Shown: positions 527-44,585 of the stretch, one piece after another
Numbering within the stretch: the first letter of the stretch is position 1
How the letters are laid out: the number at the start of each line of letters is the position of its first letter
Virus record (IMG/VR): IMGVR_UViG_3300023499_000220
Span: 113,645 to 177,644 of that record
Source: a virus
Direction: 5' to 3' (one strand)
DNA length: 64,000 nucleotides
The notes under the pieces: model-generated
What the model saw: only the letters and a program-made list of their open reading frames with translations
What the model was told of the DNA's origin: nothing
The model's database searches: none
Program-made: the position numbers and the translations under genes

Positions 527-554
527 ATTGTAGCTACTTTGCAGCAGTTTGCAA
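527..554 (-). promoter_or_regulatory. Family-A promoter copy 1: -35 TTGCAA, 16-nt spacer containing the TTGCTGCAA palindrome, -10 TACAAT (read on the minus strand)
   Basis: Plus-strand text attgta-gctactttgcagcagt-ttgcaa. One of 7 near-identical copies. Drives the ORF at 93..437. Confidence 0.6.
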
Positions 555-570
555 GAACGGTGTCGTCTTC

Positions 571-2034
571 TTAAGCATGTTCAGGCAACCACTGCTGCGG
601 GTAGGCTCGAAGTTTATTCCGTGGCACACAATCGTTCAGGGCAGAGTTTTCAGCGAGCGCCATGTCGATGATGTAATAATCATCACCATTGCGCATCACA
701 TCAATACTCCACTGTCCTACCAGTTCAACAGCGGAAAGAATCTTCTTGATTTCATCCAAAATCATCCTAGCACTGTCATCATATCGAGACTGCAGGATAT
801 CCTCGTGCATCTGATAGATGACATAATCGTGGCGTTCCTGCGGCGTACTTGCGTTTTTGAACTTACCCTTCATCACATCGGCACGCCAATAAGGACTGAT
901 ACCCAGCACCTCATCAGCGTCGAAATCGACGAATACGCGGTACTCAGTATGCAGCGGCAAACCGTTGTAGATGGTCGGGTTATTTTCCTTGTCTTTGATA
1001 TATTCCCTGAGCACCCACTCGTTTGTGGTATTTGCACCATAGAAGCAGGTATTGTTCAACGGCGAAGCCATAGAACAGGTCAGATGATTCAAAAACAGGA
1101 AATACTCGCCCATCTCATTGATTTCCTTTGGGTCATGGATATGAGCGTTGCGAAACTCATACTTGGAAGAATAAGTTCCGGTCTTGATGAAGTAATCCTC
1201 GTGCTCATCCAGCTTGAATATCCGCTTGCAATAACGGTTCACGATTTCCTTGGTTACGGGATTCAGGGTTTCAAAACCAAGGCGAGTGAGCTGCAGCATC
1301 GGCAGCGGAACACGCAAAATCTTGGTATCAGGAATCCTGAAGAATTTGTTCCCGTACAACGCTTTTGCCAGCGGCGGAAGCCAGAATCCCATCGTGTTGG
1401 GATTCATTTCGAGCATCTGGTAGGTGAAGTCGTCGAGGTCAAGAATATCAAGACCCTGACGGAACTGGTTGTAGTAGAACTTTTTCATGCGGTCATCGCG
1501 TGCATCCTTGTACTCGGCGTAATTCTGAAGCAGAATCTTATACGACGGCTCCGAAATATCGACCTTCACGAGATTTCCTGTCAGCTGAGGTCTGAGCTCT
1601 TCCGGGTATTTTTTCAGGTCATTGTTCGTTACCGGCACAGCGTATCGAGATGCTGCATAGTTTACATAATATCCGCCGCGTTTATCATTGTAGATGTACA
1701 GGCGAGTACCATCTGTTAACTCACCTACGATACGGTCAATGAGTGTTTCAAGGTCCCGCGTAAACGGCACCCTCTTGTCAAGCATAGCTTTGACAGTAGC
1801 AGTATCCCACTGTAAAAAGTTCTCGGATAATGCCCCGCTGTCCAGCACCTGTTTCTTGTAGGTGTCCTCGAATGTTTTGAGGGCATCAGGGCTTGTTTTC
1901 AGCATTGCGGCAAGTTCTTCGTAGGAAAACGATTTATCTTCCCTTTTGGTCATCATTTTACCAATTTTGGCAATCATATTTTCGATTTCCTCCTTTTTGG
2001 GAATCAGGTGTTTGCAAAATTCGGATTCTTCCAA
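571..2034 (-). CDS. ATP-grasp-like domain protein (487 aa)
   Basis: Motifs FIKTGTYSSKYEF, EYRVFVDFD and WSIDVMRNGDDYYIIDM resemble the central and C-terminal signatures of ATP-grasp enzymes. Substrate unknown. Confidence 0.4.
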   Translation of the reverse strand: MEESEFCKHLIPKKEEIENMIAKIGKMMTKREDKSFSYEELAAMLKTSPDALKTFEDTYKKQVLDSGALSENFLQWDTATVKAMLDKRVPFTRDLETLIDRIVGELTDGTRLYIYNDKRGGYYVNYAASRYAVPVTNNDLKKYPEELRPQLTGNLVKVDISEPSYKILLQNYAEYKDARDDRMKKFYYNQFRQGLDILDLDDFTYQMLEMNPNTMGFWLPPLAKALYGNKFFRIPDTKILRVPLPMLQLTRLGFETLNPVTKEIVNRYCKRIFKLDEHEDYFIKTGTYSSKYEFRNAHIHDPKEINEMGEYFLFLNHLTCSMASPLNNTCFYGANTTNEWVLREYIKDKENNPTIYNGLPLHTEYRVFVDFDADEVLGISPYWRADVMKGKFKNASTPQERHDYVIYQMHEDILQSRYDDSARMILDEIKKILSAVELVGQWSIDVMRNGDDYYIIDMALAENSALNDCVPRNKLRAYPQQWLPEHA

Positions 2035-3077
2035 ATCAACTTATTCCCGTAATAGACTTCGGGAATGTACTTGATGGAAATTCTGCGATTGTCTTCGAGT
2101 TGCGAATCGTTGTTCACGATAAACTCCTCGATGCGATTTTCTTCACTGCGCGGGGTGATGTTGCAAGTCGAGAAACCTCCACCGTACAGGATATCACTGT
2201 TCATCATACCTTTGACCGGATACTTTACTTCGGTCGTTTTACCGTTGATGTTCAGGACAAGGCGAACGGTTTCGTATTGCTTAGCAAGTTCCACAAGAAG
2301 CCTGAACATGATTTCCTGAGTGTTCGGACTATTGTACTTTCTCATATACTCTTCCGTCAACTCTTCCACCACAGCCAATGTAATCCCGTATAGGCGTCCA
2401 GACCGCCCGGAATTTGCCTTTTTGATTTTCTCCATCGTCCGTTCAGCCCAGCCGGTTGGATTAGCAAGATAATCCACTACCAGTTCATCGGCATTTGTGG
2501 ATGTCAGGCCAAAGCAAGACCCGTTTCCAATCTCATCGACAATGCTGTCAATAGGGCTGCGATAATTCTTATACCCCTTTATTATGCGACAGAAAGCGTT
2601 CTGTCGTGCTATCTTGTCGTAATGACTGCCCTTGAGAATTTTCTTGTCTTCTTCCGTCACATTCTCTCGGAACATATCGAACAGCTTATGTGCCATTTCC
2701 TCTATGACAGAATCCGAGGTAAAAGAAGAACGGCAGAAAATCGTTTTGAAGTCCTGTGTTTCATTGACGGTTTTGGCATTGTCGACAACGAGGCAAAGGA
2801 AGCGTATCTCTTGGTTGAATGTTACGGGTTTCTTTTCCAAGATTCCATAAAACCGCTGCCCGTACAAGGCATCTACCTTGTGCTCGCCATTGGCGAGCGG
2901 CACACGAATGAAACGGTAGTAGCGCCCGGACGGTTTTCCGGTATCGGGAATTGTGTTGCCTTCGAACACGGATGCGCCGGATTTGATAGCCTGCTCAAAA
3001 TCCTCACGAGTTAAATTGATAGTCATAATTTCTTCCTTTCTGTTTTTATTATTTTTTAGCTGTTTTCTTCGATGCAC
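2004..3077 (-). CDS. hypothetical protein (357 aa; alternative start MTINL near 3026)
   Basis: Long intact ORF flanked by the ATP-grasp-like gene and the radical-SAM gene. No motif recognised. Confidence 0.4.
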   Translation of the reverse strand: MHRRKQLKNNKNRKEEIMTINLTREDFEQAIKSGASVFEGNTIPDTGKPSGRYYRFIRVPLANGEHKVDALYGQRFYGILEKKPVTFNQEIRFLCLVVDNAKTVNETQDFKTIFCRSSFTSDSVIEEMAHKLFDMFRENVTEEDKKILKGSHYDKIARQNAFCRIIKGYKNYRSPIDSIVDEIGNGSCFGLTSTNADELVVDYLANPTGWAERTMEKIKKANSGRSGRLYGITLAVVEELTEEYMRKYNSPNTQEIMFRLLVELAKQYETVRLVLNINGKTTEVKYPVKGMMNSDILYGGGFSTCNITPRSEENRIEEFIVNNDSQLEDNRRISIKYIPEVYYGNKLIWKNPNFANT

Positions 3078-3841
3078 AATTTGCTGCTACGAATGTTTTC
3101 CAACCATTTTTCATCCATAACATTGCCAATACGATACTTCCTCTGGGATTCATAGGACCAGTCACAACCGACGACAACATCACCGATGGCATTCAGATAC
3201 AGTTCTCCATCAGTGATATTGATTCCGGCTTCATTTCTCGGTTTACAATCTCTCTCATATTCAATCACAAGTTCCGAAACTATAGGTTCTCTCTTTAGAA
3301 TCTGATTTGCGTTGATAGTTTTGGCACGACCCTCGTTAATGAGATATTGCTTGCGAAAATCCGTTACTTTATCATTACGATTATATCTCAAACCGCTAAG
3401 AATACTCGCACTTTCGCGGGGAATTTCTTCATGAAAATCATCGCTGCTGATACAAAGACCACACGAATAGTCATCCTTGTCATCGCAATAATTCCACCAT
3501 TCGAGGCTCGCCAAAGCGAGTTCTACCATCTTATCGACGGCTTTCCCGTTGGTTACCATATAAAAACTCCCAACGGAAATGTTTCGCTCTCTTACGGCGT
3601 TCAAAGTATAGCGGATAGCAGGAATATTCAAAGAAATTTCTCCACCCGTAAAGGTCAAGGAACTGATGTATCCTGCATTAGCAAAACTGTCAAGAAACGC
3701 ATCGATATATCTTTCCTGAATATCGACCGCCTCCGCATCACCACGCAAACAATGCGCACAGCACATATTACAGCGACGGGTAACCTCAATTACCACATCA
3801 CACGCGCTCGAAATATACATTCTATTTACTCCTTTCATCAA
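3056..3841 (-). CDS. radical SAM domain protein (261 aa)
   Basis: CNMCCAHC gives the Cx3Cx2C 4Fe-4S/SAM cluster motif near the N-terminus. TFTGGE provides the glycine-rich SAM-binding motif. Activase, QueE-like or maturase cannot be distinguished from sequence alone. Confidence 0.65.
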   Translation of the reverse strand: MMKGVNRMYISSACDVVIEVTRRCNMCCAHCLRGDAEAVDIQERYIDAFLDSFANAGYISSLTFTGGEISLNIPAIRYTLNAVRERNISVGSFYMVTNGKAVDKMVELALASLEWWNYCDDKDDYSCGLCISSDDFHEEIPRESASILSGLRYNRNDKVTDFRKQYLINEGRAKTINANQILKREPIVSELVIEYERDCKPRNEAGINITDGELYLNAIGDVVVGCDWSYESQRKYRIGNVMDEKWLENIRSSKLCIEENS

Positions 3842-4218
3842 TTCTCGTCCGCAAAGCTCTCATTGCGGTCAACGATGATATCCACATCCAGTGGTGTAAT
3901 TTTACCCAGACCGTAATTCAAGAAGAACGAGCCGGGAATGTCATCGACATCGCCCCAGTTCCAGCAACCACAGTTAATTTCAAGCTGTCGTTTGCCTTCG
4001 TCCGTCTTGAGATAATCTTTGATTGCGCCGCGCAGGACACTTTCCGGGTCATGGATTTGCTCCGGATTATAGCTAAACTGAATCAGTGTGCATTCCACTG
4101 CACGGTCAACAACCTCATTAGCAACGATTGTAAAAACCTTTGTCATAGTAATCCTCCTCAATAAACAGTCAGGCACAACGAACGCGAATGACATTATCAT
4201 CATTCGACAAGCAAACAA
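3838..4218 (-). CDS. hypothetical protein (126 aa)
   Basis: Intact ORF, probably translationally coupled to its neighbours. Confidence 0.35.
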   Translation of the reverse strand: MFACRMMIMSFAFVVPDCLLRRITMTKVFTIVANEVVDRAVECTLIQFSYNPEQIHDPESVLRGAIKDYLKTDEGKRQLEINCGCWNWGDVDDIPGSFFLNYGLGKITPLDVDIIVDRNESFADEN

Positions 4219-4624
4219 TCACGTCCACATCCGGTCCCTCTTTCTCAAGAGCACCTTCAAGGATTGGCTTGATTTTGTGCCATTGATTTTCTGTGATTTT
4301 ACAGCCGGGGCTCATAAGCAGAATATTTGCTTCGGCCAGCTTTGCTTTCATGACCACTTGTAGGAAACAACCGTATAGGTATCCGTAATTCACCTTGTTA
4401 CTTTCAAGACAAATCATATCTGCTATTACGGTCCTTTTATTACCATAGCAGTTCACAACATGTCCCAAGCGATGCTCAGATTTGTCATACCGTACCTTGG
4501 CATCCGGAAACATGCTTTCAATAGATTCGTTTTTGAAAACACCACTGCTATCACAAAAAACACAAACGATATTTTTGCCGGGAAACTCCTGACTTGATAA
4601 ACAGCTTTTTGTCTTTTTTATCAA
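4169..4624 (-). CDS. hypothetical protein (151 aa)
   Basis: Intact ORF lying immediately downstream of family-A promoter copy 2. Confidence 0.4.
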   Translation of the reverse strand: MIKKTKSCLSSQEFPGKNIVCVFCDSSGVFKNESIESMFPDAKVRYDKSEHRLGHVVNCYGNKRTVIADMICLESNKVNYGYLYGCFLQVVMKAKLAEANILLMSPGCKITENQWHKIKPILEGALEKEGPDVDVIVCLSNDDNVIRVRCA

Positions 4625-4732
4625 TTCTTCTTCATCATCCTTTCGGCGATAACAAAAAATACCGCCACCTCTTACGAGATAGCGGTATGTTGATTTTGAA
4701 TTTTTATTGTTTTTTATCTATCGGATATACTT

Positions 4733-4760
4733 AGTATATCGATTTTGCAGCAATTTGCAA
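4733..4760 (-). promoter_or_regulatory. Family-A promoter copy 2 (TTGCAA-16-TATACT)
   Basis: Plus-strand text agtata-tcgattttgcagcaat-ttgcaa. Conserved downstream element ccgatagataaaaaa. Confidence 0.6.
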
Positions 4761-4812
4761 GCGCAGCTATGGCGCTTCAACTTTTTTCGGGGGTTTTATT
4801 TTTTCGCTTTAC

Positions 4813-5610
4813 TTACAGCAAACTCATCTCTGCACGATATGCATCGGCATCGTAGCCCCAGATATTACAAGCAAAATCGATTGCTGCGTTACCTTCGCTG
4901 GGATAACCGTCGTCAACAAAATCTCCTTTGCAAAGCGCATACCAGCCACAATTACTTCCGATATCCTCATCCGCATATTTTACACGAATATTGGCGTGTG
5001 GGAATTTACGGCTCAGTTCGACAATGGCGCATGCAGGTGTATTCCAAGGGGTTTTAAAATTGATGGCAATTTCCGTATCATTTATTCTACGGATATTCAC
5101 ATCAAAAACATCCCACTTTACGCCCCAGTTTGCGACACGCCAATAATACCATGAAGCATATCCATATTTTACGGCATTTTCCAAAGCACGCTCCGCTACA
5201 GTATCGAACTCTTCGACATTATAGGGGATACGTTTCAGGTTGATGAGTTTGCTATCTTTCACGTGTTCCAGTTTGGAGCGAGCTTCCGCAGCTTCCTTGC
5301 AAACACCAACCATATCTGATGCAGTAAGTTTTTCCTTCCTGTGCAGGAGAAAAGTTTCTCTGCAAATAGCCTTTCTTACGTTTTCCGGATACTTCTCCGG
5401 GTCAATTCCGTATTTATTTACGGCCGCCCATGCGAGCATCCTGTCACATGGCGATACGATTTGCAGTGATTCCGGCATAGGAACAACAGACTGAAGCGAA
5501 AAATCTTTTTCGCCATCATCGTCTTTTCCCTTGACACGATTCAGAAAATCCTCCAACTCTGCCTGAGAATTGAAAGAAACAGACATGATATTCATGATAT
5601 TGTTTGCCAT
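4813..5610 (-). CDS. hypothetical protein (265 aa)
   Basis: Intact ORF with conserved-looking motifs VPMPESL and NWGVKWD. Family not confidently recognised. Confidence 0.45.
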   Translation of the reverse strand: MANNIMNIMSVSFNSQAELEDFLNRVKGKDDDGEKDFSLQSVVPMPESLQIVSPCDRMLAWAAVNKYGIDPEKYPENVRKAICRETFLLHRKEKLTASDMVGVCKEAAEARSKLEHVKDSKLINLKRIPYNVEEFDTVAERALENAVKYGYASWYYWRVANWGVKWDVFDVNIRRINDTEIAINFKTPWNTPACAIVELSRKFPHANIRVKYADEDIGSNCGWYALCKGDFVDDGYPSEGNAAIDFACNIWGYDADAYRAEMSLL

Positions 5611-5627
5611 TTATTTTCTCCTTTGTC

Positions 5628-5816
5628 TTACGCGGGTACGCGTACGCAAGAATAGTGGCAAGCTCCACAATTCAGGAACTTTGCCCGCTTCATCGCCTCA
5701 TCCAAGCTGAACCGCGTCGCTTCGTTAATGTTGGCAGTATCACTCTTACACTCTACGTAAAAACGCACATCTCCAAAAAACGGGTCTTTACGGCTTAGCG
5801 CATACATATTTTCCAA
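5628..5816 (-). CDS. small Cys-containing hypothetical protein (62 aa)
   Basis: Intact ORF. A decayed paralogous copy of its N-terminus lies at about 6365..6400. Confidence 0.35.
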   Translation of the reverse strand: MENMYALSRKDPFFGDVRFYVECKSDTANINEATRFSLDEAMKRAKFLNCGACHYSCVRVPA

Positions 5817-5845
5817 AATAAGTCCTCCTCAAATATATTTCTCTC

Positions 5846-5925
5846 AGAACTTCTCGAATTCCTCGCTCGGCATCTGTGCTTTCGCTTCATCCAGCAGTCT
5901 TTTGTAGGAATCGCTGGAAACATTT
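5846..5925 (-). pseudogene. C-terminal remnant of a paralogue of the 253-aa gene at 6403..7164
   Basis: The minus-frame translation VSSDSYKRLLDEAKAQMPSEEFEKF* matches the C-terminus (SSDSYERLLDETEAQMPSEEFEKFWERYI) of the downstream gene, but no upstream part of that gene remains. Confidence 0.5.
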
Positions 5926-5943
5926 CCTTTCTATTTATTTTCG

Positions 5944-6285
5944 TCAAATGATAACGGCTTCCAATGCTACAGCACCAGACCCGATTTCATCAGCAACTTT
6001 TGATGCTGTTGCAAAATCGTTGTGAGCATACGGTCCTTGCGAATCCATATAAGTGACTCGGTAGGCATAATCTGGCTCAAATGATGGGCTTACAATAATG
6101 TAAATACCAGTGTTTAACTGATATGTGATGGCATCAGCTTTTTCGATTTGAGCGATGATTTCCTTTCGACGCTTAGCTTCCGACTGCAAGTATTCAGATG
6201 CTGCCTCTTTAATAGGGTCACAAAGGAAAATATCGTCTGGATTACCCGTAATCGGGGGTAGGTCACCCGGATAATAGGATATCAT
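5944..6285 (-). CDS. hypothetical protein (113 aa)
   Basis: Intact ORF. Confidence 0.35.
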   Translation of the reverse strand: MISYYPGDLPPITGNPDDIFLCDPIKEAASEYLQSEAKRRKEIIAQIEKADAITYQLNTGIYIIVSPSFEPDYAYRVTYMDSQGPYAHNDFATASKVADEIGSGAVALEAVII

Positions 6286-6402
6286 GCTTTCATCTCCTTC
6301 TTTTTGTCTTCAGCGATGACTTTTTGGAACACGTTAATGTTGGTGGTATCGCTCTTACGCTTTACGGCTCAACACATACATATTTTCCATAATAAGTCCT
6401 CC

Positions 6403-7164
6403 TCAAATGTACCTCTCCCAGAACTTTTCGAATTCCTCGCTCGGCATCTGTGCTTCTGTTTCATCCAACAGTCTTTCGTAAGAATCACTGGAAACATCGG
6501 TGCCAATAAAATCGGCAACGGCATCATGACCGCGCTGCATCAAAGCGTCTTTCAGAATCGCCCAACGGCATTCGTGAATGGCATCATCCAGCGTTTTGTT
6601 GCCATCAGGCTGCCAATACTCGCCTGTCTGCTGAATTCTATAAAACTCATCCAGCGCATCATCAACATTGTTTTCGAGAAGAATATCGTCAATAAAATTG
6701 ACAGGATAATCCTTGCCGTTGATTTTCACTTCTGCATAACTGAAACAGTCGTCGTCACACGGCATTGCTGCGCATGTGACATCGAAAATTTCGTGCGTTT
6801 CCTTGTTTACCTTGCAAGGCAACTGAAATGTTGCTCCGGACTCGAAACAAGAAAAGACAACCGCTTCCTCAACATCGTTGTCGGGGCACTTTGCAGACTG
6901 GATAAATTCCGGCATGGACAGCACATCAATACTCTCCCTTCGGTCACCCATGGCAGGATAAACCTTCATGATTGTATAACCATCATGCTGCAGCTTTCGG
7001 ATAGCACGGCACAGGTCGAGATGCATTTCATGAAGACTGATGCCACTGCCTCGTCCGTCTTTTTTGGTATAGATTTCGACAACTACATCTTCAGAGGTGG
7101 TCTGAACAACATAATAAGTCTTATCATTACAAATCTTAAACATAGCACTTATCTCCCTTCTCAA
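6403..7164 (-). CDS. hypothetical protein (253 aa)
   Basis: Intact ORF. Its 3' end is duplicated at 5846..5925. Confidence 0.4.
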   Translation of the reverse strand: MRREISAMFKICNDKTYYVVQTTSEDVVVEIYTKKDGRGSGISLHEMHLDLCRAIRKLQHDGYTIMKVYPAMGDRRESIDVLSMPEFIQSAKCPDNDVEEAVVFSCFESGATFQLPCKVNKETHEIFDVTCAAMPCDDDCFSYAEVKINGKDYPVNFIDDILLENNVDDALDEFYRIQQTGEYWQPDGNKTLDDAIHECRWAILKDALMQRGHDAVADFIGTDVSSDSYERLLDETEAQMPSEEFEKFWERYI

Positions 7165-7446
7165 TCAAACAAAAGCCAGAAAATCGTTGGCCGGAATCTG
7201 TCGCTGGGCATCGTAAGCGGTGCCGTAGACATCATCACCCCAACTGATTTGCACATCCTTCGTCCACAGAGCAAGCTCAGACATTTTTGCTGCCACGGCT
7301 TTTGCGGAGCTGCAGATATACTTCTTGACGGCGTTGTTTTCTTTTACGTTAATTGTAAACATTTCAATTTCCTCCTTAACACAACAAAAAACAGCCATCT
7401 CGATTGAGATGGCTGCACGAACAGATTTTGAACTAAAACAAGTCAA
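7165..7446 (-). CDS. hypothetical protein (93 aa)
   Basis: Intact ORF directly downstream of family-A promoter copy 3. Confidence 0.35.
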   Translation of the reverse strand: MTCFSSKSVRAAISIEMAVFCCVKEEIEMFTINVKENNAVKKYICSSAKAVAAKMSELALWTKDVQISWGDDVYGTAYDAQRQIPANDFLAFV

Positions 7447-7479
7447 GGAATTGATACTTTGATTTATCTTAGTTCCTTA

Positions 7480-7507
7480 ATTATATCTACTTTGCAGCAA
7501 TTGACAA
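7480..7507 (-). promoter_or_regulatory. Family-A promoter copy 3 (TTGTCA-16-TATAAT)
   Basis: Plus-strand text attata-tctactttgcagcaat-tgacaa. Confidence 0.6.
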
Positions 7508-7537
7508 GATAGCCACAACAGGAATGCAACATCGTAT

Positions 7538-7759
7538 TCACGGTACTTTTTCAACGACATCTTCACCGTAAACCACGAACAGACCAGAGCCGTTATCCCA
7601 GCGAACCATGATACTGCCGGTATCGTCTATACCTGAAACTGTGCCGAGTGTTCCAATAGGTGGAGCCTGAATATCATCCATTTTCAGCAGTTTCACGCGT
7701 GTTCCGGCTGGATATTCGGCACGGAGCGCAGCGACGATTTCTCGATTTGGGAAAGTCAT
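7538..7759 (-). CDS. DUF4314-like small protein (73 aa)
   Basis: The VSGIDDTGSIMVRWDNGSGL motif is typical of DUF4314, which is common on phages and conjugative elements. Confidence 0.45.
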   Translation of the reverse strand: MTFPNREIVAALRAEYPAGTRVKLLKMDDIQAPPIGTLGTVSGIDDTGSIMVRWDNGSGLFVVYGEDVVEKVP

Positions 7760-7775
7760 AAATGTACCTCGCTTC

Positions 7776-8345
7776 TTAATATGTCACGGTGTCAAAGAAC
7801 TCCTGACATTCCTCATCGTTCAACACAACGCCAAAGTACGCAACACGCTCGACGGTGGTTTCCCACACCTTAACGGTACGCGTCATAGGCTGAACGACCC
7901 ACGAATGCTGTCGCCAAAGGCCATCTTCACTTAAAGCGTACCCGGTTGCAATCTGACATCTGCCACGATTTGCATCCCACAGATAAGCAGCGTTCTGATG
8001 GCAACGACAATCCTCGCCCTTCTTCATGTACTTGGAACCATAGAAGAACTGTCCTCGTTCCAGAACTTTTTCCGCATCCTCATCACGGGTATTGAGCAAA
8101 ACCTCATCACCGCCGAAAGTTAAAATTCTATCACGCAGAGCGCGCAAAGTCTTTTTCATTTCGTTTGTGAGCCAAGGCGCGGTGGCGTCCTCGTTGTACA
8201 GCTGCATTGCCTCTACTCGTTTTTTCCATTCCTTATCCATCGGATTCCAGCGGACATGGTTCGCAACCATATCAGGAGAGGTCATGGGCGTTTTGGCATT
8301 CCAACTAAATTTCTTATTTGCCATTATAATACTCCTTTTCAACAA
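7776..8345 (-). CDS. hypothetical protein (189 aa)
   Basis: Intact ORF. Confidence 0.35.
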   Translation of the reverse strand: MLKRSIIMANKKFSWNAKTPMTSPDMVANHVRWNPMDKEWKKRVEAMQLYNEDATAPWLTNEMKKTLRALRDRILTFGGDEVLLNTRDEDAEKVLERGQFFYGSKYMKKGEDCRCHQNAAYLWDANRGRCQIATGYALSEDGLWRQHSWVVQPMTRTVKVWETTVERVAYFGVVLNDEECQEFFDTVTY

Positions 8346-8383
8346 ATCCGCTTACCTGAAAAAGGTAAGCGGTTATATTTTGA

Positions 8384-9094
8384 TTATGCGAGCATGGGAT
8401 ATATTTCTTTCTTTACCGCCCTCATAAGAGCGGCAGCATGTGCGGCGTTTTGTGCATTGCCAACACCTGCGCGAGATATTTTTGGATTCACACGCTCAAT
8501 GAAATTTTTCTTATACGGAGCAGAAATGCTCCTTGCAGCATCGATAATCTGTTTCATGTTTTCAGCGTCGATTTTTTGCTGAACGCATAATTTTTGTAAC
8601 CGTGTGCAAAAAGCGTCTTTGTTGTCCCGTACAGAAGTAGAATGATTTTTTGTTTCTTTATGTGGGATGACTGCCTCACAGGCTATCCGTTTAACGCTTA
8701 ACCCTTTACTGCACATGGTCTGAATAAGCCCGTCATATCCCTTGTCTGCCGACACGATGATATAATTGCTTTTCTTTCCTGTTGTGCAAAGACTACCAAG
8801 TTTAGCAACAACGTGGAAATCCATGCTGTTTTTCCCTGCATTGGAGACGCAGAACTCTACTTGGTTGACTGGGTACTTTGCCAGAAAAACCTGCAATTCT
8901 TTAAGTGACATGTATGTGGCTTCCGGACCGATGAAGATAATCAGCTTGTCCTTTTTGGTTTTAAAATGCACTACATTTAGCCATTTCTTTTGGACATTCT
9001 CGGTATCTATCAGCCAAACGGTTCGAGTGCAGCTCACACATTTCACCCCCACACTTCGGTGACTTTTCTGGGGATTCCGTGCTTGTCGATACAC
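8384..9094 (-). CDS. NYN/PIN-like nuclease domain protein (236 aa)
   Basis: WLIDTENV, LIIFIGP and IIVSADKGYDGLI resemble the acidic-residue motifs of the NYN/LabA fold. Confidence 0.4.
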   Translation of the reverse strand: MYRQARNPQKSHRSVGVKCVSCTRTVWLIDTENVQKKWLNVVHFKTKKDKLIIFIGPEATYMSLKELQVFLAKYPVNQVEFCVSNAGKNSMDFHVVAKLGSLCTTGKKSNYIIVSADKGYDGLIQTMCSKGLSVKRIACEAVIPHKETKNHSTSVRDNKDAFCTRLQKLCVQQKIDAENMKQIIDAARSISAPYKKNFIERVNPKISRAGVGNAQNAAHAAALMRAVKKEIYPMLA

Positions 9095-9339
9095 TGCCGG
9101 TAAATTGTAAACTTACTGTTCGGGTGCGCCTTCATATAGTCAGCGCGTGCCGCGTCCGTGTTCGCAATCAGTAGATTTTTATCGGCAATAAGAACGCTTT
9201 CCCATCCGGAATCGAGAAGCGTACTGGCAACATCTTTGAAAGATACGTCTGCAGGCGTATCGCACTTACAAACACCTCGTGCGATAGGATGCGCAGTGGC
9301 AATGATTTTTGCTGCCGTCATCACAGTCTCGTAACTCAT
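9043..9339 (-). CDS. hypothetical protein (98 aa)
   Basis: Intact ORF. Confidence 0.3.
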   Translation of the reverse strand: MSYETVMTAAKIIATAHPIARGVCKCDTPADVSFKDVASTLLDSGWESVLIADKNLLIANTDAARADYMKAHPNSKFTIYRQCIDKHGIPRKVTEVWG

Positions 9340-9351
9340 AGTGTCCTCCTA

Positions 9352-9609
9352 TCACGCCACCTCGAAATACTTTTCGACATCGCTGTTGATAGAACGCGCA
9401 GGAACACCCTTGGTCTTCTCACTGTAGTAGCCACGCTTTTTCAGCGTGTTCTTAACAATAGAAATGCTCTTGTCGCTGCGCATGGTACGCTTTCTCTTTT
9501 CGATGCGTGCAGAACGAATGCGCTTTTCGTACTTCTGCATACGCACAACATCCATGATGATAGGAGCAGTAGTCTCCGCGATATACTCATTAAAAGTTTT
9601 CATATTCAC
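9352..9609 (-). CDS. hypothetical basic small protein (85 aa)
   Basis: Intact ORF with a GGAGG ribosome-binding site 4-10 nt upstream. It lies downstream of family-A promoter copy 4 and an intrinsic-terminator-like hairpin. Confidence 0.4.
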   Translation of the reverse strand: MNMKTFNEYIAETTAPIIMDVVRMQKYEKRIRSARIEKRKRTMRSDKSISIVKNTLKKRGYYSEKTKGVPARSINSDVEKYFEVA

Positions 9610-9766
9610 ATATCCTCCGTAATATATTATTTTTCTAAATAAAAAAGGCAGCTATTTTTTCAAAAATAGCTACCTTTAGTACATTGTGATTGGCGATAAT
9701 TCAATCATGCACGCCCATAAAACTCTGGTGCGATGCATTGTGTGATTTTATTTATCGGATAACTAT

Positions 9767-9794
9767 ATATTATTAACTTTGCAGCAATTTGCAA
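9767..9794 (-). promoter_or_regulatory. Family-A promoter copy 4 (TTGCAA-16-TAATAT)
   Basis: Plus-strand text atatta-ttaactttgcagcaat-ttgcaa. Confidence 0.6.
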
Positions 9795-9805
9795 GCGCAG
9801 CATAC

Positions 9806-9841
9806 AATAAAAAGCGCCTCCCGTATTACGGGGAAGCGCCT
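9806..9841 (-). terminator. rho-independent terminator downstream of 9851..10450
   Basis: Minus-strand RNA GCGCUUCCC-loop-GGGAGGCGC followed by UUUUUAUU. Confidence 0.5.
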
Positions 9842-9850
9842 TAGTGTTAT

Positions 9851-10450
9851 TTATTCTTTGTTATCCGAAGGAATTTTCGGAGACTTCTTCTTCTCAACGA
9901 AAGCATCAATCGTTCGGCCGAAACGATTAAGAAGCATTGCGCCAAGATAAAGAATGATGCCGCTAATCATGATACCAACATCAAGCGTCTCAAATCCTGC
10001 AAAACTCTTGCAATAAATAGAACTGACTGCGAGAGCGCCAAGCGTTGGCAGCGAAGCAATCGTTACCGTAAGTGCCGCATACACAACACTATTCAGAACA
10101 GTACCAATACTTGCAATGATGCCGCGCTTTTTAAAAGTGCGCTGCTTATCGTAGGACATCTGATAAGCCCCGATAAGACTTGGTTCACGAATAATGTCGC
10201 GCAGATGCAGCAGGCACCACGCCAAAACAGCACACCCGATGCCGCAGCCGACCTTATAGGCACTCATGCGAGAACCCCACAGGTCATTTGCGTTGGCGGG
10301 AACGACGAACGCCAGAATATTGAACAGGACGGCAAACAAGACGAACATTGCCATGTGGGGATTCTTGGCAGTGTTGCGAGCCTCGTTCTTTGCCTTACTG
10401 GCGACTTCCTCGGTCTGATTGTGAATTTTTACATTGAGAATTTTTTCCAT
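9851..10450 (-). CDS. integral membrane protein (199 aa)
   Basis: Several hydrophobic helices. No signal peptidase site. Confidence 0.45.
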   Translation of the reverse strand: MEKILNVKIHNQTEEVASKAKNEARNTAKNPHMAMFVLFAVLFNILAFVVPANANDLWGSRMSAYKVGCGIGCAVLAWCLLHLRDIIREPSLIGAYQMSYDKQRTFKKRGIIASIGTVLNSVVYAALTVTIASLPTLGALAVSSIYCKSFAGFETLDVGIMISGIILYLGAMLLNRFGRTIDAFVEKKKSPKIPSDNKE

Positions 10451-10494
10451 TTTTTACCTTTCCTTTCGTGTGGACGATTTAGTTGTAAATCGTT

Positions 10495-10827
10495 TTAATC
10501 TCTGTGATAGCGCTGCATCATACCGAACATAGCCGCAAGCGCCAATGCAAGGTAGATGTAAGTGTATCCCTTTTCAATCATGTTCAGAATCACGATGGTA
10601 AAGCTCGAAAAAGCACCACAATAAAAAGCGGCACCAAGTTTATCGACCAAAAACATCAACATCTGGGCAACGACTGCCGCAGGAACAAGAAGCTTGAGAC
10701 GCTTGGCCTCAATGATTCCGTCCCAGTCAAGAACAGCAATGAAGCTGGCTCCCATGCAGATGACCCAAACAAAAGCGAAAATAAGGGTTGCTGTGTCAAA
10801 AAAGTTACTCATATCAGTTACCTCCAA
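10495..10827 (-). CDS. small polytopic membrane protein, paralogue 1 (110 aa)
   Basis: Shares about 45% identity with the adjacent ORF 10868..11197, with the same length and hydropathy profile and an identical 3' end (tctgtgatagcgc). Tandem duplication. Confidence 0.5.
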   Translation of the reverse strand: MEVTDMSNFFDTATLIFAFVWVICMGASFIAVLDWDGIIEAKRLKLLVPAAVVAQMLMFLVDKLGAAFYCGAFSSFTIVILNMIEKGYTYIYLALALAAMFGMMQRYHRD

Positions 10828-10867
10828 AATTACTGATGGTTTACGGGTTTATGGACATCGAATCGCA

Positions 10868-11197
10868 TTATCTGTGATAGCGCTTTGTCATGCCAAACAT
10901 AGCTGCAATCATAATCGCCAAATATGCGTACAAATACAAGTTCTCAATCATTCCAAGAACTGAAATTGTAAGACTGGCGAACATACCGCAATACAGAACA
11001 GCACCAATTTTTTTGATGATGAACAGCGTGGCTTGCGCAATGATGGCGACAACGAGAAAAACTTTGATGTATTTAGCCTCAAATAAACCATCCCAATCGA
11101 TGGCAAGGAAGATACAAGCCCCCACAGCGAGAGCCCAAACCAAAGCAGCAACAGATGCAACAGCGTCAAAGAAGCTTAACATAGCGAATACCTCCAT
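10868..11197 (-). CDS. small polytopic membrane protein, paralogue 2 (109 aa)
   Basis: See paralogue 1. Lies directly downstream of family-A promoter copy 5. Confidence 0.5.
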   Translation of the reverse strand: MEVFAMLSFFDAVASVAALVWALAVGACIFLAIDWDGLFEAKYIKVFLVVAIIAQATLFIIKKIGAVLYCGMFASLTISVLGMIENLYLYAYLAIMIAAMFGMTKRYHR

Positions 11198-11324
11198 GTT
11201 TTAAATAGGTTAATGTTCGGACATCTATATAAACAGCAAAAAGCCGCCAATGGGACAATCCACTGGCGGCTCAGTTGCCGATTGCAATAATACAGTTAAA
11301 TCATTTGATTTATGTTATGTCTCA

Positions 11325-11352
11325 ATTATATTAACTTCGCAGCATAATGCAA
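11325..11352 (-). promoter_or_regulatory. Family-A promoter copy 5 (TTGCAT-16-TATAAT)
   Basis: Plus-strand text attata-ttaacttcgcagcata-atgcaa. Confidence 0.55.
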
Positions 11353-11360
11353 GAGCTTTT

Positions 11361-12332
11361 TCAGAAGACTTCGTCAAGTTTTGCACATACAATAAAACGA
11401 GTATCGTAATTATCACTGCCTGAACAGGTGGACAAAATCAAAACCTTATCATTCAATCCAACTTCTGTGGCGTACTGATTGTAAGAGTAAGCTTTCATAC
11501 TTGCAATCTCTGTCAGAAAATACGAATCATCCGGATTCGCAATGGTATAACTTGGGTCAATAGGATAATCGGCAACGGCAAAGATTTTCCATCGTGTCTG
11601 TTGTTCACCCAAAGTAAGATAAATATACCGATGTTCCTTTGCAAAGTTGACATCGCGAAAGTATTTCAAAACACTGAATTTCTTGTGCATACTATTTCCG
11701 TTGCTATGTCCAAAAATAACAGTTACTCTGTACATATCGTCAACATTGCTGACATTCCATTCGGAGGGAACAAAATAAGCGCCCCAGATACTTTCCCTAT
11801 CGAACTCATTGTGAGTCAGGTAATAATCATCGTCTGTGGGATGCTGCAAAATGGGCTCATCTGTAACATCAACGCCGGGAACAGTTAAGTAACCAACGGT
11901 GTTCTTGGAATACGCTGGCTTTGGTGTTGGTTCCGGTTCTGAATCACTCTCACTTGAATTAGAAGACGGGATAAGAATCGAGGGAGTAGAAACGGGTTCT
12001 TCTACATCGTCGGAGATGTTTCCTGTCTCATATGCAGGGATATGATAGTAATCATACGCCTTCCATCCAATATAGCCAATCATGGCAATAAGAACGATGC
12101 AAATTACGACCAACAAAACTGTCCAGATGGAAAATCGCCGTTTCTCTTTGCCCTCTGACACGTCCATCGCATCCATCGATTCATTGTCATCCTCGTCATG
12201 GCTTGCCTTTTGATGAGGGAAGTTTTCACCAGTTCCATCATCCTCATCATTTGGAATGTAATTGTACGCACCAAGTTCCTGTTCGAAATGTTCTTCTTCG
12301 GGCAGTGGTGGAATAATAGGTGTTTTTGCCAT
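11361..12332 (-). CDS. srtB: class B sortase (323 aa)
   Basis: N-terminal membrane anchor. SrtB-type VGYLTVPGVDV motif. Catalytic triad: His in IFGHSNG, Cys in LILSTCS, Arg in YDTRFIV. Confidence 0.75.
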   Translation of the reverse strand: MAKTPIIPPLPEEEHFEQELGAYNYIPNDEDDGTGENFPHQKASHDEDDNESMDAMDVSEGKEKRRFSIWTVLLVVICIVLIAMIGYIGWKAYDYYHIPAYETGNISDDVEEPVSTPSILIPSSNSSESDSEPEPTPKPAYSKNTVGYLTVPGVDVTDEPILQHPTDDDYYLTHNEFDRESIWGAYFVPSEWNVSNVDDMYRVTVIFGHSNGNSMHKKFSVLKYFRDVNFAKEHRYIYLTLGEQQTRWKIFAVADYPIDPSYTIANPDDSYFLTEIASMKAYSYNQYATEVGLNDKVLILSTCSGSDNYDTRFIVCAKLDEVF

Positions 12333-17008: not shown

Positions 17009-17037
17009 ATTATACCACATAAATATAATGTGGTCAA
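17009..17037 (-). promoter_or_regulatory. Family-B promoter copy 1 (TTGACC-17-TGGTATAAT)
   Basis: Plus-strand text attataccacataaatataatgtggtcaa. Probable promoter of the operon running from 16961 down through secYGE and srtB. Confidence 0.55.
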
Positions 17038-21392: not shown

Positions 21393-22454
21393 TTAAACGC
21401 GAGCGTCAATCAGGCAATTCAGCAGCCCGTTCGCGTCACAGCCAAACAATAAGCATCCGAACACACCAATGGCATGTCCTTTTCTGGTAGAGAATGTTCC
21501 TGCCGTAACACCAAGATGCCCGGCAATCTGCTCATCTGTCCAGTTGTACTTTTTCCCCTCAATCATTGCAAGGATAACGTCATAATAACGTTGACCAAGC
21601 GGAAACTGTTTCATGATTTCGACAGCCCCTCGTATGAGTTTCACATACTCCACAATGAGATAGGCATCGCTTCTGTTTTTATCAGAAACTTTGATTTTAC
21701 TCAAATCTTCGTACGAAGAAGACCCAAGCAGCTTCATGGCGGGGTCCTTTGACCGTGAGGCACGATACAGAATACGCGTGTATTCCGTAAGGAGCAGCGG
21801 AACATTATGATAAAGGCTTGCTTCTTCTACCCCGTCCACATCACTGCTTGTCATCAGGATTTTATAATATTCCTTGATAACACTACCTGCTGTATTGTAA
21901 ACGGATTCAATGCACCGCTCGCAATACTTCATGATTTTGATGCGTCCATTCTTCGGAAGAACGGCGGGATTCAAAAAGCAATCAAACACCTCCCGCATGC
22001 TGGAACAATAATCGACTTCGTACAAGAGTTCTAACCGCGACTCCTCAATGGCGTCAAGAAGCATCTGACAACTTTCGAAGTATTCTTTGCGTTTCCTGAA
22101 ATGCAAAGACTCTTCCTCAATGTTCGGAGCCAGCCAGCTCTGAATACGGCGCAAACGGGAAATGGCTTCGACATCGCACATCTCATCGTCGTGAACGTTT
22201 TCACAGTTCTGCATCATGACATCAAGGTCTTGTGCCTGCATCATCCATTTGAGTGCCGGATACAATATCATCAGAACAGCCGCTTCTTTCAGTTCCGGCC
22301 GCTCTTCCACAACACGGTTTACGCACTTTGTCAGCACATAAGAATTGGGGATGTCTCCGCCAAAACTTCTACGCAGAACAATGTTGTCCTGCATAATAGC
22401 ATCGAGCAATGCGTAAAGCTGCTGTTCTTGGGCTTTATTCAATGCTTCGGACAA
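21393..22454 (-). CDS. divergent sigma-factor-like protein (353 aa)
   Basis: The C-terminal LGQRYYDVILAMIEGKKYNWTDEQIAGHLGVTAGTFSTRKGHA fits the sigma-70 region 4 HTH pattern (RxVfxLrxxeGxsxxEIAxxLGxsxgTVKSRlhRA). Confidence 0.4.
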   Translation of the reverse strand: MSEALNKAQEQQLYALLDAIMQDNIVLRRSFGGDIPNSYVLTKCVNRVVEERPELKEAAVLMILYPALKWMMQAQDLDVMMQNCENVHDDEMCDVEAISRLRRIQSWLAPNIEEESLHFRKRKEYFESCQMLLDAIEESRLELLYEVDYCSSMREVFDCFLNPAVLPKNGRIKIMKYCERCIESVYNTAGSVIKEYYKILMTSSDVDGVEEASLYHNVPLLLTEYTRILYRASRSKDPAMKLLGSSSYEDLSKIKVSDKNRSDAYLIVEYVKLIRGAVEIMKQFPLGQRYYDVILAMIEGKKYNWTDEQIAGHLGVTAGTFSTRKGHAIGVFGCLLFGCDANGLLNCLIDARV

Positions 22455-22949: not shown

Positions 22950-23048
22950 ATAAGTGCAGTAAAGGTATAATTTATATTACCGGTTACAAAGATTGTTGTT
23001 TTCGGTAATTATATAAACTTGTCTGTTAAACCAAGCAGGAGGGAAATT

Positions 23049-25406: not shown

Positions 25407-25637
25407 ATGCCATCCACCTTTGATACCATGGTAGGAAAGCGAATCAAAAAGCAACGAATGGAAATCAATTACAGCCAAGAACAGTTGGCGGCAAGCACGA
25501 ATTGTTCCTATCGCTGCATCCAAAAATGGGAGTCAGGAAAGACGATGCCGCGAGCACAAATGCTATGCAATTTAGCAAAAGCCTTACATGTTTCGTCTGA
25601 CTGGCTGCTTGGTATTTCCAATGACAGGAACGGTTAA
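25407..25637 (+). CDS. XRE-family HTH transcriptional regulator (76 aa)
   Basis: QEQLAASTNCSYRCIQKWESGKTMP is a typical Cro/C1 HTH. Divergent from parM. Confidence 0.75.
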   Translation: MPSTFDTMVGKRIKKQRMEINYSQEQLAASTNCSYRCIQKWESGKTMPRAQMLCNLAKALHVSSDWLLGISNDRNG

Positions 25638-28670: not shown

Positions 28671-28952
28671 TTAAGTTCGATGAACTTTGTTTTTCATACA
28701 ACAAGGAAGGCAACAGACACCGTATGTGTTATTGCCCCACTCGCAATGCGCTCGACTGCAAATAACACCGCGTTGGGCTTTGACGGTTTTCTTCTCTTCT
28801 TTCTTCTTTTCGATTTCGCCTTCCCGAAGAATGGTCTTTACTTCCTTTGTTGTGATACCATACTTTCTGGCAATCTGAACGACCGTTTTTCCTCCGTTGA
28901 ATTCCTCTACAGCCTGTTCATGTGTTACGCCACAGCCAAATTTTCCGTACAT
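28671..28952 (-). CDS. HTH plus Cys-rich small protein (93 aa)
   Basis: VVQIARKYGITTKEV is HTH-like. C-terminal CxxxC...CCLPCC cluster. Confidence 0.4.
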   Translation of the reverse strand: MYGKFGCGVTHEQAVEEFNGGKTVVQIARKYGITTKEVKTILREGEIEKKKEEKKTVKAQRGVICSRAHCEWGNNTYGVCCLPCCMKNKVHRT

Positions 28953-31126: not shown

Positions 31127-31155
31127 ATTATACCACATTAAAACAAGGTAGTCAA
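31127..31155 (-). promoter_or_regulatory. Family-B promoter copy 2 (TTGACT-17-TGGTATAAT)
   Basis: Plus-strand text attataccacattaaaacaaggtagtcaa. Confidence 0.55.
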
Positions 31156-33043: not shown

Positions 33044-33072
33044 ATTATACCACAAATAGGCGAATGAATCAA
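33044..33072 (-). promoter_or_regulatory. Family-B promoter copy 3 (TTGATT-17-TGGTATAAT)
   Basis: Plus-strand text attataccacaaataggcgaatgaatcaa. Confidence 0.45.
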
Positions 33073-34277: not shown

Positions 34278-34305
34278 ATTGTATCTACTTTGCAGCAAAT
34301 AGCAA
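34278..34305 (-). promoter_or_regulatory. Family-A promoter copy 6 (TTGCTA-16-TACAAT)
   Basis: Plus-strand text attgta-tctactttgcagcaaa-tagcaa. Confidence 0.5.
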
Positions 34306-34352
34306 AGAAAAAAGCCGAGCGGCTTATCACCGCTCGGCATCCCCATCACATA

Positions 34353-34929: not shown

Positions 34930-34958
34930 ATTATACCACATTTTGCCTTAATGGTCAA
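34930..34958 (-). promoter_or_regulatory. Family-B promoter copy 4 (TTGACC-17-TGGTATAAT)
   Basis: Plus-strand text attataccacattttgccttaatggtcaa. Confidence 0.55.
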
Positions 34959-36176: not shown

Positions 36177-36205
36177 ATTATACCACTAAAAGTATAAATA
36201 GTCAA
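36177..36205 (-). promoter_or_regulatory. Family-B promoter copy 5 (TTGACT-17-TGGTATAAT)
   Basis: Plus-strand text attataccactaaaagtataaatagtcaa. The transcript would traverse the tandem palindromic repeats before reaching the lipoprotein gene. Confidence 0.5.
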
Positions 36206-44303: not shown

Positions 44304-44557
44304 CCTTACCTACTCCCTAGTGTGCAGCCTCGATTGTAGATAAGAAAGTATATCAAAACACAAGCAATCAAATTGCATATTTACAATATGCCACAAAAAG
44401 ACAGAAAAGTCAATCAAAAATTTTGGCACAAAAATGCCACCCATGAACGCATTCTCATATTTCGTATGGACATGGATGGTTGAAACATTAACGCAAAACC
44501 TGCTTGACTATAGCTATTATTTGTTCTAAGAAATTTGATGCTGTATTTATATCTATT

Positions 44558-44585
44558 ATATTACTTACTTTGCAGCAACGGTCAA
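44558..44585 (-). promoter_or_regulatory. Family-A promoter copy 7 (TTGACC-16-TAATAT) upstream of the 2,672-aa adhesin gene
   Basis: Plus-strand text atatta-cttactttgcagcaac-ggtcaa. Confidence 0.55.

Follow-up and report, generated by a model that had tools for sequence, protein, structure and literature searches.

Why should seven promoters on one replicon share not only their −35 and −10 hexamers but also the sequence that separates them? The question arises from a 64,000-nucleotide stretch of the IMG/VR virus record IMGVR_UViG_3300023499_000220 (positions 113,645 to 177,644; hereafter the window), in which a sequence-only reading had recognized seven near-identical minus-strand promoters, here called family A, and took their shared, palindrome-containing spacer to point to a single element-encoded regulator or an anti-sigma-sensitive holoenzyme contact. 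Our analysis partly supports this proposal. The sites are indeed promoters, and a factor encoded by the element is likely; terminators in the leaders, the plasmid-wide scale of the promoter class and the lineage-specific character of its spacer box had been missed, and the emphasis on the palindrome was wrong. By sequence, the seven sites appear to be the standard regulated promoter of one lineage of the conjugative megaplasmids known as Hodor.

Seven promoters share a spacer box

All seven sites lie on the minus strand between minus-strand open reading frames (ORFs), with −10 hexamers ending at 527, 4733, 7480, 9767, 11325, 34278 and 44558, as first reported. They align without gaps as a TTGCAA-like hexamer, one nucleotide, the 12-mer TTGCTGCAAAGT (zero to two mismatches), three nucleotides and a TAnAAT-like hexamer, giving a 16-nt spacer in which the box, (T)TTGCTGCAAAGT, spans −28 to −16. 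Scored with a 32-nt matrix derived from them, the seven sites reach 36–45 bits, compared with 9 bits for the next best position on either strand of the 64 kb; the window therefore holds exactly seven copies and no intermediates. Searching with a 19-mer pattern (two mismatches or fewer) returned five matches against 0.00 expected from 100 shuffles, the other two copies being recovered through the 12-mer core. A consensus scan lists five promoters with 16-nt spacers (554→527, 4760→4733, 7507→7480, 34305→34278 and 44585→44558); the sites at 9767 and 11325 are absent from it, and for these two the spacing of 16 nt was read off the ungapped alignment. Conservation extends beyond the −10, as had been noted, with ...GATAAATAAAA about 10–11 nt after it. 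The spacer had also been called invariant and said to contain a perfect 9-bp palindrome, TTGCTGCAA. It is nearly so, with deviations at 527 (CTGCTG), 4733 (AAAAT) and 11325 (ATGCTGCG), and the perfect palindrome is found in five of the seven copies.

The window also carries a second promoter family, B, of the form TTGACy-N14-TGTGGTATAAT. This near-perfect σA consensus with an extended −10 occurs at seven window sites against 0.22 expected, is common to all Hodor-like lineages examined and has no leader terminator. Family A lacks the TG of an extended −10 and offers only TTGc and a 16-nt spacer. The presence of family B alongside it marks family A as a special class beside ordinary strong σA promoters.

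Family A is a plasmid-wide promoter class

The class extends well beyond the seven sites. Scanning IMG/VR for exact matches to TTG-N4-TTGCTGCAAAGT-N3-TA-N3-T returned 133 matches at 72 loci on 19 contigs, with all matches within a contig on one strand and 33 copies on a single 240.7-kb contig. Core proteins encoded at these loci are 97–100% identical to those of the window, which places the loci in the window lineage. Family A is thus a plasmid-wide class, with at least 33 copies per 241 kb, rather than a set of seven.

A profile of 114 unique copies, anchored on the 12-mer alone (one mismatch or none), resolves the promoter base by base. In the −35 element, TTG is conserved at 93–94% (−34 to −32) and C at 67% (−31), and the last two positions (−30, −29) vary. 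The box follows, with T at 71% (−28) and every base from −27 to −16 at 91% or more. After three variable positions (−15 to −13) comes a −10 element of the form TAtAMT, with TA at 94–96% (−12/−11) and T at 92% (−7). The start region has a pyrimidine at −1 (87%), A at +1 (83%) and an A-rich stretch from +6 to +15. The spacer is exactly 16 nt throughout, and no copy has an insertion or deletion between the hexamers. These hexamers, their spacing and the conserved Y−1/A+1 bear out the assignment as σA-type promoters, and the same two bases suggest a start about 7 nt after the −10. The box holds 23 bits of information compared with roughly 5–6 bits per hexamer. The interleaving of variable positions (−30, −29 and −15 to −13) with invariant ones argues for selection on specific bases over recent copying.

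Same-strand ORFs of 100 codons or more span 5 of 97 copies, whereas they span 78.5% of random same-strand positions. The motif thus lies between genes, which argues against the dispersed repeat, common inside coding regions, that the sequence-only reading had named as its refuting outcome. The palindrome fares less well: TTGCTGCAA occupies −27 to −19, with each base at 91% or more, and conservation is asymmetric, continuing past the palindrome to AGT on the right. This asymmetry, together with the non-palindromic box of a sister lineage described below, indicates that the palindrome is incidental and not the functional unit.

A literature search for the 12-mer found unrelated primers only, and blastn of a consensus cassette against INPHARED and PLSDB gave chance matches only. 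A scan of species-representative genome contigs yielded 50 loci but no multi-copy relatives; essentially all were single chance matches, one locus had two identical matches in unrelated sequence, and two conserved host or mobile promoters stood out, a Gemmiger/Subdoligranulum promoter and a Lactobacillaceae promoter that precedes a pncB-like gene. Several known promoter classes were considered and set aside: geometry rules out σ54, MerR-type (which needs a 19–20-nt spacer), T7-like and Bacteroidetes promoters, and a single-stranded-DNA (Frpo-like) promoter is ruled out by the lack of a complementary partner for the promoter region.

Promoter and leader terminator form one cassette

Between promoter and gene, the sequence-only reading had overlooked an intrinsic terminator. 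It is present in five of the seven window copies and, by a lenient criterion (a hairpin of −8 kcal/mol or below abutting a T-run at +15 to +165), in 83 of 97 copies overall, compared with 93 of 400 random same-strand windows (23%); expression is not defined by the promoter alone. In the window copies at 527, 4733, 7480, 9767 and 11325, a G+C-rich hairpin and U-run lie 75–125 nt from the inferred start and ahead of the ribosome-binding site of the next gene. The RNA folds of these five leaders have z scores of −2.7 to −7.0, and several include a 5' hairpin starting at +1 to +4. A strict perfect-stem finder located a terminator in 71 of 114 copies, with a median transcript end at +84; by the lenient criterion, the T-run starts at a median of +76 (5–95% range, 55–119). 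A Shine–Dalgarno (SD) sequence and an ORF of at least 40 aa follow in 68 of 77 evaluable cassettes, the median distance from T-run to start codon is 44 nt, and a terminator also lies upstream of the promoter in 36 of the 77.

The leaders share further features at the RNA level. A box of the form TNANAAT(C/T), typically UUCAAAAUC, precedes the hairpin by 8–21 nt in 49 of 83 leaders, compared with 4.7% of random windows. Alignment of 29 box-plus-terminator segments gave a 10-bp consensus stem with compensatory changes in eight of ten pairs and frequent G·U pairs, which indicates a strand-specific RNA structure. When this box and terminator were built into a covariance model, it found 63 unique matches in 0.64 Mb. 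Sixty of these follow a family-A core at a distance of 52–88 nt, and two of the other three are antisense echoes; promoter and leader therefore form one cassette. A 5'-terminal hairpin occurs in only 36% of leaders versus 17% of shuffles. In some copies (4733; locus L031), the A-rich 5' leader can pair strikingly with the U-tail of the terminator. As a general feature, this long-range helix was rejected, cognate pairs being only marginally better than non-cognate ones (−7.9 versus −6.8 kcal/mol, p = 0.003). The RNA bodies are not conserved between copies, and sub-families have common leader sequences.

A promoter, a short transcript and a terminator are also the anatomy of a small RNA (sRNA) gene, and the cassettes could in principle be a family of sRNAs of ~55–130 nt acting in trans, with downstream genes expressed from other promoters or by leakage. 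The conserved 5' sequence and internal box would suit such a family, as would the independent promoter that serves the gene after the copy at 44558. The differing RNA bodies speak against it, as does the position of the terminator, typically 27–44 nt from the SD sequence and start codon of a gene for which a further promoter can seldom be recognized. In Rfam 15, the 64-kb window had no match at gathering score, and a relaxed search of positions 1–12000 gave only chance-level rliG/rliH hits (E ~0.1). At least 30 different sRNAs per plasmid lacking a conserved target-pairing region would be unlikely, and we give this explanation hardly any weight.

A sister lineage carries a different box in the same register

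The window-type matrix has no match in L127, a 368-kb contig whose SecY is about 90% identical to that of the window; the corresponding identities are 44% for ParM, 30% for the 353-aa protein discussed below and 84% for the 2,672-aa protein. Its intergenic regions instead contain the motif TTGCAc-a-ttcGTGCGAAyTG-ca-TAnAAT, and an IMG/VR scan with this sister pattern returned at least 120 loci. Among the matches listed, 124 unique copies anchored on GTGCGAAYT alone have TTGC at 87–98%, G at +19 at 88% and the TA/AAT of the −10 at 84–98%; a leader terminator is found in 54 of 100 of the listed copies, and 1.0 Mb of the listed sister loci contains no window-type site. The register is that of the window promoters and only the spacer word differs (GTGCGAAYTG, which is not a palindrome). 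Loci of the window lineage carry 5 sister-like sites against 91 of their own type. A G2 leader covariance model found nothing in the sister lineage. Locus L129 has a third lineage-specific box, TTGTGACAAAGT; in the viral and metagenome collections it did not turn up in multiple copies, and only isolated variants were seen.

The alternation of free and invariant bases and the switch of the box at constant geometry point to a sequence-specific reader that is plasmid-encoded and works in register with RNA polymerase. The sister lineage, with its different box in the same register, thereby strengthens the earlier idea of an element-encoded factor. We predict that a plasmid-encoded DNA-binding protein, particular to each lineage, docks on the box.

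Cassettes are gained and lost between orthologous genes. The cassette at 421–556 sits between two genes (571-2034 and 93-437) that are directly adjacent, separated by a ribosome-binding site only, in L154 (8717-10474). Such a pattern might mean that the cassettes are recombination or mobility modules like the T4-type PeSL elements, kept uniform by gene conversion and read by no dedicated regulator. PeSLs are repeated promoter/terminator motifs that mediate insertions and deletions (PMC2839356, PMC4122927). The cassettes here flank small accessory ORFs, one is present in the window and absent at related loci between the same orthologous gene pair, and sub-families have leader sequences in common, all of which fits. 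However, variable bases are interleaved with invariant ones, which is unlike conversion tracts, and the boxes stay distinct although the lineages exchange accessory genes at up to 97% identity. As a full explanation this is highly improbable; a role in recombination would be compatible with regulation and no replacement for it.

A few sister-box promoters (for example, CTTGCATGTTTGTGCGAACCGAATAGAAT) do occur on window-lineage plasmids (L008, minus strand, offset ~1416; L011; L022; L031; L048; L151 at 7921). In at least one case, L151, the gene beside the promoter matches one in sister-lineage loci. These cases suggest that modules may be exchanged between lineages along with the foreign promoter.

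What might read the cassette

The terminator halts the promoter's own transcripts, a layout that makes most sense if polymerase can become terminator-resistant. By analogy with the Q and AlpA proteins, we lean, tentatively, toward a cassette in which a promoter-embedded site works together with a downstream terminator. The host σA-type promoter would initiate at the conserved Y−1/A+1, and in most copies the transcript would run through an A-rich 5' stretch (+1 AT..., +6 to +15) and the UUCAAAAUC box before halting at the intrinsic terminator. A plasmid factor docked on the box would act on RNA polymerase at the promoter, and only polymerase that starts with the factor in place between −35 and −10 would acquire resistance to the terminator. 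The accessory genes behind dozens of cassettes could then switch jointly from short abortive leader RNAs to full mRNAs.

Several observations weigh against such an antitermination cassette. No homolog of the Q or AlpA families was found on the element. Both λ Q and AlpA need a −10-like element in the early transcript, at which polymerase makes a σ-dependent pause, as well as the downstream terminator (PMC6606751, PMC9371919). A pause element of this kind (NANNNT, at least 4 of 6 positions) occurs in 68% of copies versus 60±5% of shuffles, and in 44% versus 33±4% in the sister lineage, and is not enriched above composition. No terminator is near in 14% of copies (46% in the sister lineage). The conserved RNA features, the UUCAAAAUC box and the top of the hairpin, would not be needed by an antiterminator loaded on DNA, a hint that an RNA-level player is involved. 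To our knowledge, Q-type systems have one or two loading sites per element, not dozens. The leading candidate factor, described below, has no Pfam or PHROGs match and a poor structure model, and σ4-like helix-turn-helix (HTH) folds are common.

Control at initiation only is another account, one we regard as possible but doubtful. The box would be a repressor operator or an activator site, and the leader terminator a separate attenuator or insulator, either constitutive or RNA-regulated. An activator would compensate for the weak −35 and suboptimal spacer, in the manner of P1 Lpa, T4 MotA or Ltr/RinA-type proteins; a repressor would act globally, like KorA/KorB of IncP plasmids or C1 of P1. A box in fixed register that diverges by lineage is what such a protein would leave, and family A, with TTGc, a 16-nt spacer and no TG extended −10, has room for activation, whereas family B is near-perfect. 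In the late promoters of P1, a 9-bp inverted repeat is the Lpa site (PMC10695390). Relatives of the ORF at 21393–22454 resemble LtrB/DUF1492 late activators, some family-A promoters have no terminator, and the conserved RNA box suggests that a separate mechanism operates at the RNA level. Initiation-level control nevertheless leaves unexplained why 60 of 63 leader modules lie behind this promoter and why an efficient-looking terminator follows ~85% of the promoters. Its repressor version faces the further difficulty that the palindrome expected for a dimeric repressor is missing in the sister lineage.

Candidate trans-acting factors

Three regulators had been proposed: an XRE protein (25407–25637), a 93-aa HTH protein (28671–28952) and a σ-like protein (ORF 21393–22454). 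The last has gained support, from a C-terminal σ4-like fold and from distant relatives of the Ltr/DUF1492 type; the other two have gained none. The 353-aa product has no match in Pfam (even at E < 1) or PHROGs, sequence and profile searches of the PDB returned nothing, and its structure model is poor (pLDDT 59). A full-library profile search with the protein collected 121 representatives, about 70 of them full-length. The weakest, 170–190 aa long, cover its C-terminal 150 residues and weakly match DUF1492, the family of the LtrB late activators (PMC3753634). The operon that encodes its homolog in the sister lineage is preceded by a family-A promoter of the sister type; no such promoter of the window type precedes the operon in the window lineage. 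Across three lineages, the recognition helix is identical or similar where the boxes are similar and different where the box differs, which is the same phylogenetic pattern expected of any backbone gene. The 353-aa protein is our leading candidate for the factor: a reasonable first protein to test, nothing more.

Could this protein itself be a plasmid-borne alternative σ-like factor that reads the promoters, with the box as part of its recognition sequence? The σ region-4-like C-terminal domain raises the question, and so does a box of 23 bits beside hexamers of ~5–6 bits each. The cognate promoter on the sister factor's operon recalls autoregulated σ factors, and helix and box diverge in parallel, as any backbone gene would. 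Yet σ region 2 was not detected by Pfam or PDB sequence search, nor confidently by fold. Both the hexamers and the spacing of 16 nt belong to σA, the box at −28 to −16 is not contacted by σ region 4 in known holoenzymes, and the window-lineage factor operon has no family-A promoter. On balance, an alternative σ factor seems improbable.

The antitermination reading can be taken further. A previously unrecognized σ4-like family (the 353-aa ORF and its ~120 representative relatives) might dock on 30–50 or more promoters and load processive antitermination plasmid-wide, with box and factor co-diverging like immunity groups. We think this extended version fairly unlikely; if true, it would make a Q/AlpA-type mechanism a genome-scale switch in Bacillota.

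Two further genes are candidate readers of the box. Only two backbone genes lie on the plus strand: a 230-aa ORF (23019-23711), which has no Pfam match, and the XRE-type HTH gene (25407-25637). The 230-aa ORF is divergently transcribed, is driven by a family-B promoter and keeps its position in all lineages. Both genes have a divergent-regulator-like arrangement.

Features of the window

Coordinates of the promoters, leaders and candidate factor gene are collected in Table 1. Downstream of the copy at 11325 are tandem paralogous genes for small membrane proteins of 109–110 aa (10868-11197 and 10495-10827), neither of which has a Pfam match. The 2,672-aa adhesin had been counted in the regulon. 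Its gene has a separate near-consensus promoter of its own (44413→44385), downstream of the leader of copy 7 and its weak terminator-like hairpin region, and membership can be indirect only.

Table 1. Family-A promoters and their leaders, family-B promoters and the candidate factor gene (family-A promoters span −36 to −7)
Feature	Position	Strand	Details
Promoter copy 1	527..556	−	TCTTGCAAACTGCTGCAAAGTAGCTACAAT; 44.7 bits; inferred start ~520
Leader 1	421..520	−	5' hairpin, TTTAAAATC box, terminator hairpin 430–455 + U-run; covariance-model match 421–475, 50 bits; z −2.7; gene 93–401 begins ~20 nt on
Promoter copy 2	4733..4762	−	41.9 bits; inferred start ~4726
Leader 2	4651..4726	−	ATCCGATAGATAAAAAA, TTCAAAATC box, terminator hairpin 4659–4688 (GNRA loop) + U-run; covariance-model score 68 bits; z −6.2
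Promoter copy 3	7480..7509	−	44.7 bits; 11/12 consensus; inferred start ~7473
Leader 3	7384..7473	−	5' hairpin from +1, TTCAAAATC box, terminator hairpin 7391–7416 + U-run; covariance-model score 54.6 bits; z −5.4
Promoter copy 4	9767..9796	−	42.9 bits; inferred start ~9760
Leader 4	9637..9760	−	5' hairpin, terminator hairpin 9644–9677 + U-run; z −5.5
Promoter copy 5	11325..11354	−	most divergent box, ATGCTGCGAAGT; 37.1 bits; inferred start ~11318
Leader 5	11234..11318	−	terminator hairpin 11241–11272 + U-run; z −7.0
Promoter copy 6	34278..34307	−	42.0 bits; no leader terminator; GGAGG directly downstream; terminator upstream at 34314–34338
Promoter copy 7	44558..44587	−	−35 TTGACC; 35.9 bits; inferred start ~44551; preceded by the giant ORF's terminator (44625–44654)
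Leader 7	44416..44551	−	atypical; weak hairpin + T-run candidates 44437–44479 and 44424–44439; z +0.97, not significantly structured
Candidate factor ORF	21393..22454	−	353 aa; C-terminal HTH resembling σ region 4
Family-B site	17009-17037	−	
Family-B site	18532-18560	−	
Family-B site	22921-22949	+	
Family-B site	31127-31155	−	
Family-B site	33044-33072	−	
Family-B site	34930-34958	−	
Family-B site	36177-36205	−	
Family-B sites elsewhere	L127 ~4625, ~9065		
Family-B sites elsewhere	L129 ~9190, ~13540, ~19200		

The replicon and its relatives

The window encodes SecY, a SecG-like protein, SecE, an FKBP/trigger-factor-like protein, a ParM/Alp7A-like actin, flotillin and a Dam methylase, as well as ORFs of 2,672 and >6,442 aa. 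Judged from these genes, it is part of a Hodor conjugative megaplasmid (PMC12934698): the SecY–SecG–SecE–trigger factor–sortase module, giant surface proteins and ParM are all present, and Rep_3, VirB4 and VirD4 lie outside the window. The preprint that describes Hodor (bioRxiv, February 2026) reports human-gut megaplasmids averaging ~357 kb, with ~45% GC, contigs above 300 kb and surface proteins of more than 7,300 aa and ~2,640 aa; they are reported from over 9,000 metagenomes of human gut and wastewater and fall into two groups that have diverged deeply but have a surface and secretion module in common (PMC12934698). The replicon is therefore already described. The promoter–leader–terminator code is absent from the preprint, in which the words promoter, terminator, intergenic and sigma do not occur.

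An index of assemblies lists the exact 353-aa protein in 5,234 blocks, and the contigs that carry it reach 354 kb. When 25 kb of the window was compared by megablast with the INPHARED phages and PLSDB plasmids, no close DNA relative was found. SecY homologs fall into a series of 99%, ~90%, 71% and 59% identity, followed at ~49% by the chromosomal SecY of Gemmiger. Going by protein identities, the divergence between L127 and the window appears to match the relationship between the two Hodor groups of the preprint (PMC12934698).

Chromosomal contigs of Gemmiger, Subdoligranulum and Allofournierella (L074, L079, L093 at 1447-1560, L107 and L119) carry CCTTGACGATTGCTGCAAAGTACTTACGAT, with the same 12-mer in the same register, between tyrosine-recombinase genes. 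A leader of ~75 nt follows, then a hairpin and T-run. These copies, and the fact that the closest chromosomal SecY (49%) is that of Gemmiger, may be a clue to the host. In many Lactobacillaceae species (L077, L078, L080-L082, L086, L096, L106, L114, L117, L118, L120 and L122), an identical promoter, ATTTGCATTTTGCTGCAAAGTATTTATACT, lies upstream of the pncB-like gene (MNLQLLTDLYEFSMANG). It is probably one horizontally spread segment that contains the 12-mer by chance.

Other inserted or repeated elements were seen on the relatives. One of four otherwise identical plasmid copies has a TnpB/IS605-family gene between two backbone genes (L125, 15488-16591). CRISPR-like direct-repeat arrays occur in L127 (14101-14895 and 15538-16202; ATTTCAATCTTATGCAGTCATACAGACTGCGAC) and in L032 (~4300-4460; GTTGCAACCCACACAGGTTGCGTTAGATTGAAAT), the latter followed immediately by a leader-like terminator. 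The preprint mentions a degraded type I-C array, with which these arrays would agree (PMC12934698).

Comparison with known systems

A 30-nt promoter code joined to a leader attenuator, ahead of dozens of accessory genes, would offer a handle on the timing of their expression and suggest which regulators to consider. The two mutually exclusive boxes provide a simple sequence tag for classing Hodor lineages, and an orthogonal pair of promoter and factor specificities could supply genetic parts. Among Gram-positive bacteria, the arrangement may be the first case of Q/AlpA-like cassette logic that spans a whole replicon.

In its layout, family A resembles the promoters controlled by λ Q, the Q proteins of phages 21 and 82, and AlpA of P. 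aeruginosa. Q has its site between the two hexamers, and an intrinsic terminator follows (PMC6606751); the AlpA binding element (ABE) lies at −25 to −20, again with an intrinsic terminator downstream (PMC9371919). In family A, a conserved box (−28 to −16), the putative factor site, sits between the hexamers, the initially transcribed region is conserved and an intrinsic terminator follows shortly downstream, ahead of the regulated genes. Unlike the Q and AlpA systems, family A comes as dozens of cassettes per replicon on a Bacillota megaplasmid and has conserved motifs in its leader RNA; no Q or AlpA homolog was detected on the element, and the pause element is not demonstrably enriched.

The Lpa repeat of P1 is centered near −22. 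With TTGCTGCAA centered at about −23, family A likewise forms a multi-copy class on a plasmid-like element, P1 having 11 such late promoters. Those promoters have no −35, whereas the −35-like TTG is 93–94% conserved here; asymmetric conservation, the non-palindromic sister box and the leader terminators (to which P1 late promoters are not known to be coupled) also separate the two. In the KorA/KorB system of IncP plasmids and the C1 system of P1, one plasmid protein acts on many promoters that share a fixed-place operator, coordinating backbone and accessory functions. Unlike family A, those regulons have operators that are palindromic (KorA/KorB) or variably positioned (C1), and none is known to have a leader terminator.

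The T4-type PeSL elements are comparable in that a repeated intergenic promoter and stem-loop precede small accessory ORFs subject to gain and loss (PMC2839356, PMC4122927). In contrast to the PeSL layout (PMC2839356), the stem-loop here lies 50–120 nt downstream of the start and stops the promoter's own transcripts, and PeSLs have no additional spacer box.

The Ltr superfamily of late-gene activators (RinA, ArpU, the σ70_r4-like LtrA and the DUF1492 family LtrB) consists of small σ-region-4-like activators from Gram-positive mobile elements that are specific for their cognate promoters (PMC3753634). The weak DUF1492 matches among distant relatives of ORF 21393–22454 recall this group. The Ltr proteins, however, have ~100–190 aa and serve a single terS promoter, whereas the candidate has 353 aa, no direct Pfam match and a putative target.

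Finally, conAn of pLS20 and canT of Tn916 are likewise found on Bacillota conjugative elements whose terminators act as insulators, and in those systems antitermination is element-encoded (PMC8191782, PMC11658703). Each relies on one large cis-acting RNA element serving one long operon, whereas the Hodor promoters present a short, repeated cassette whose determinant lies in promoter DNA.

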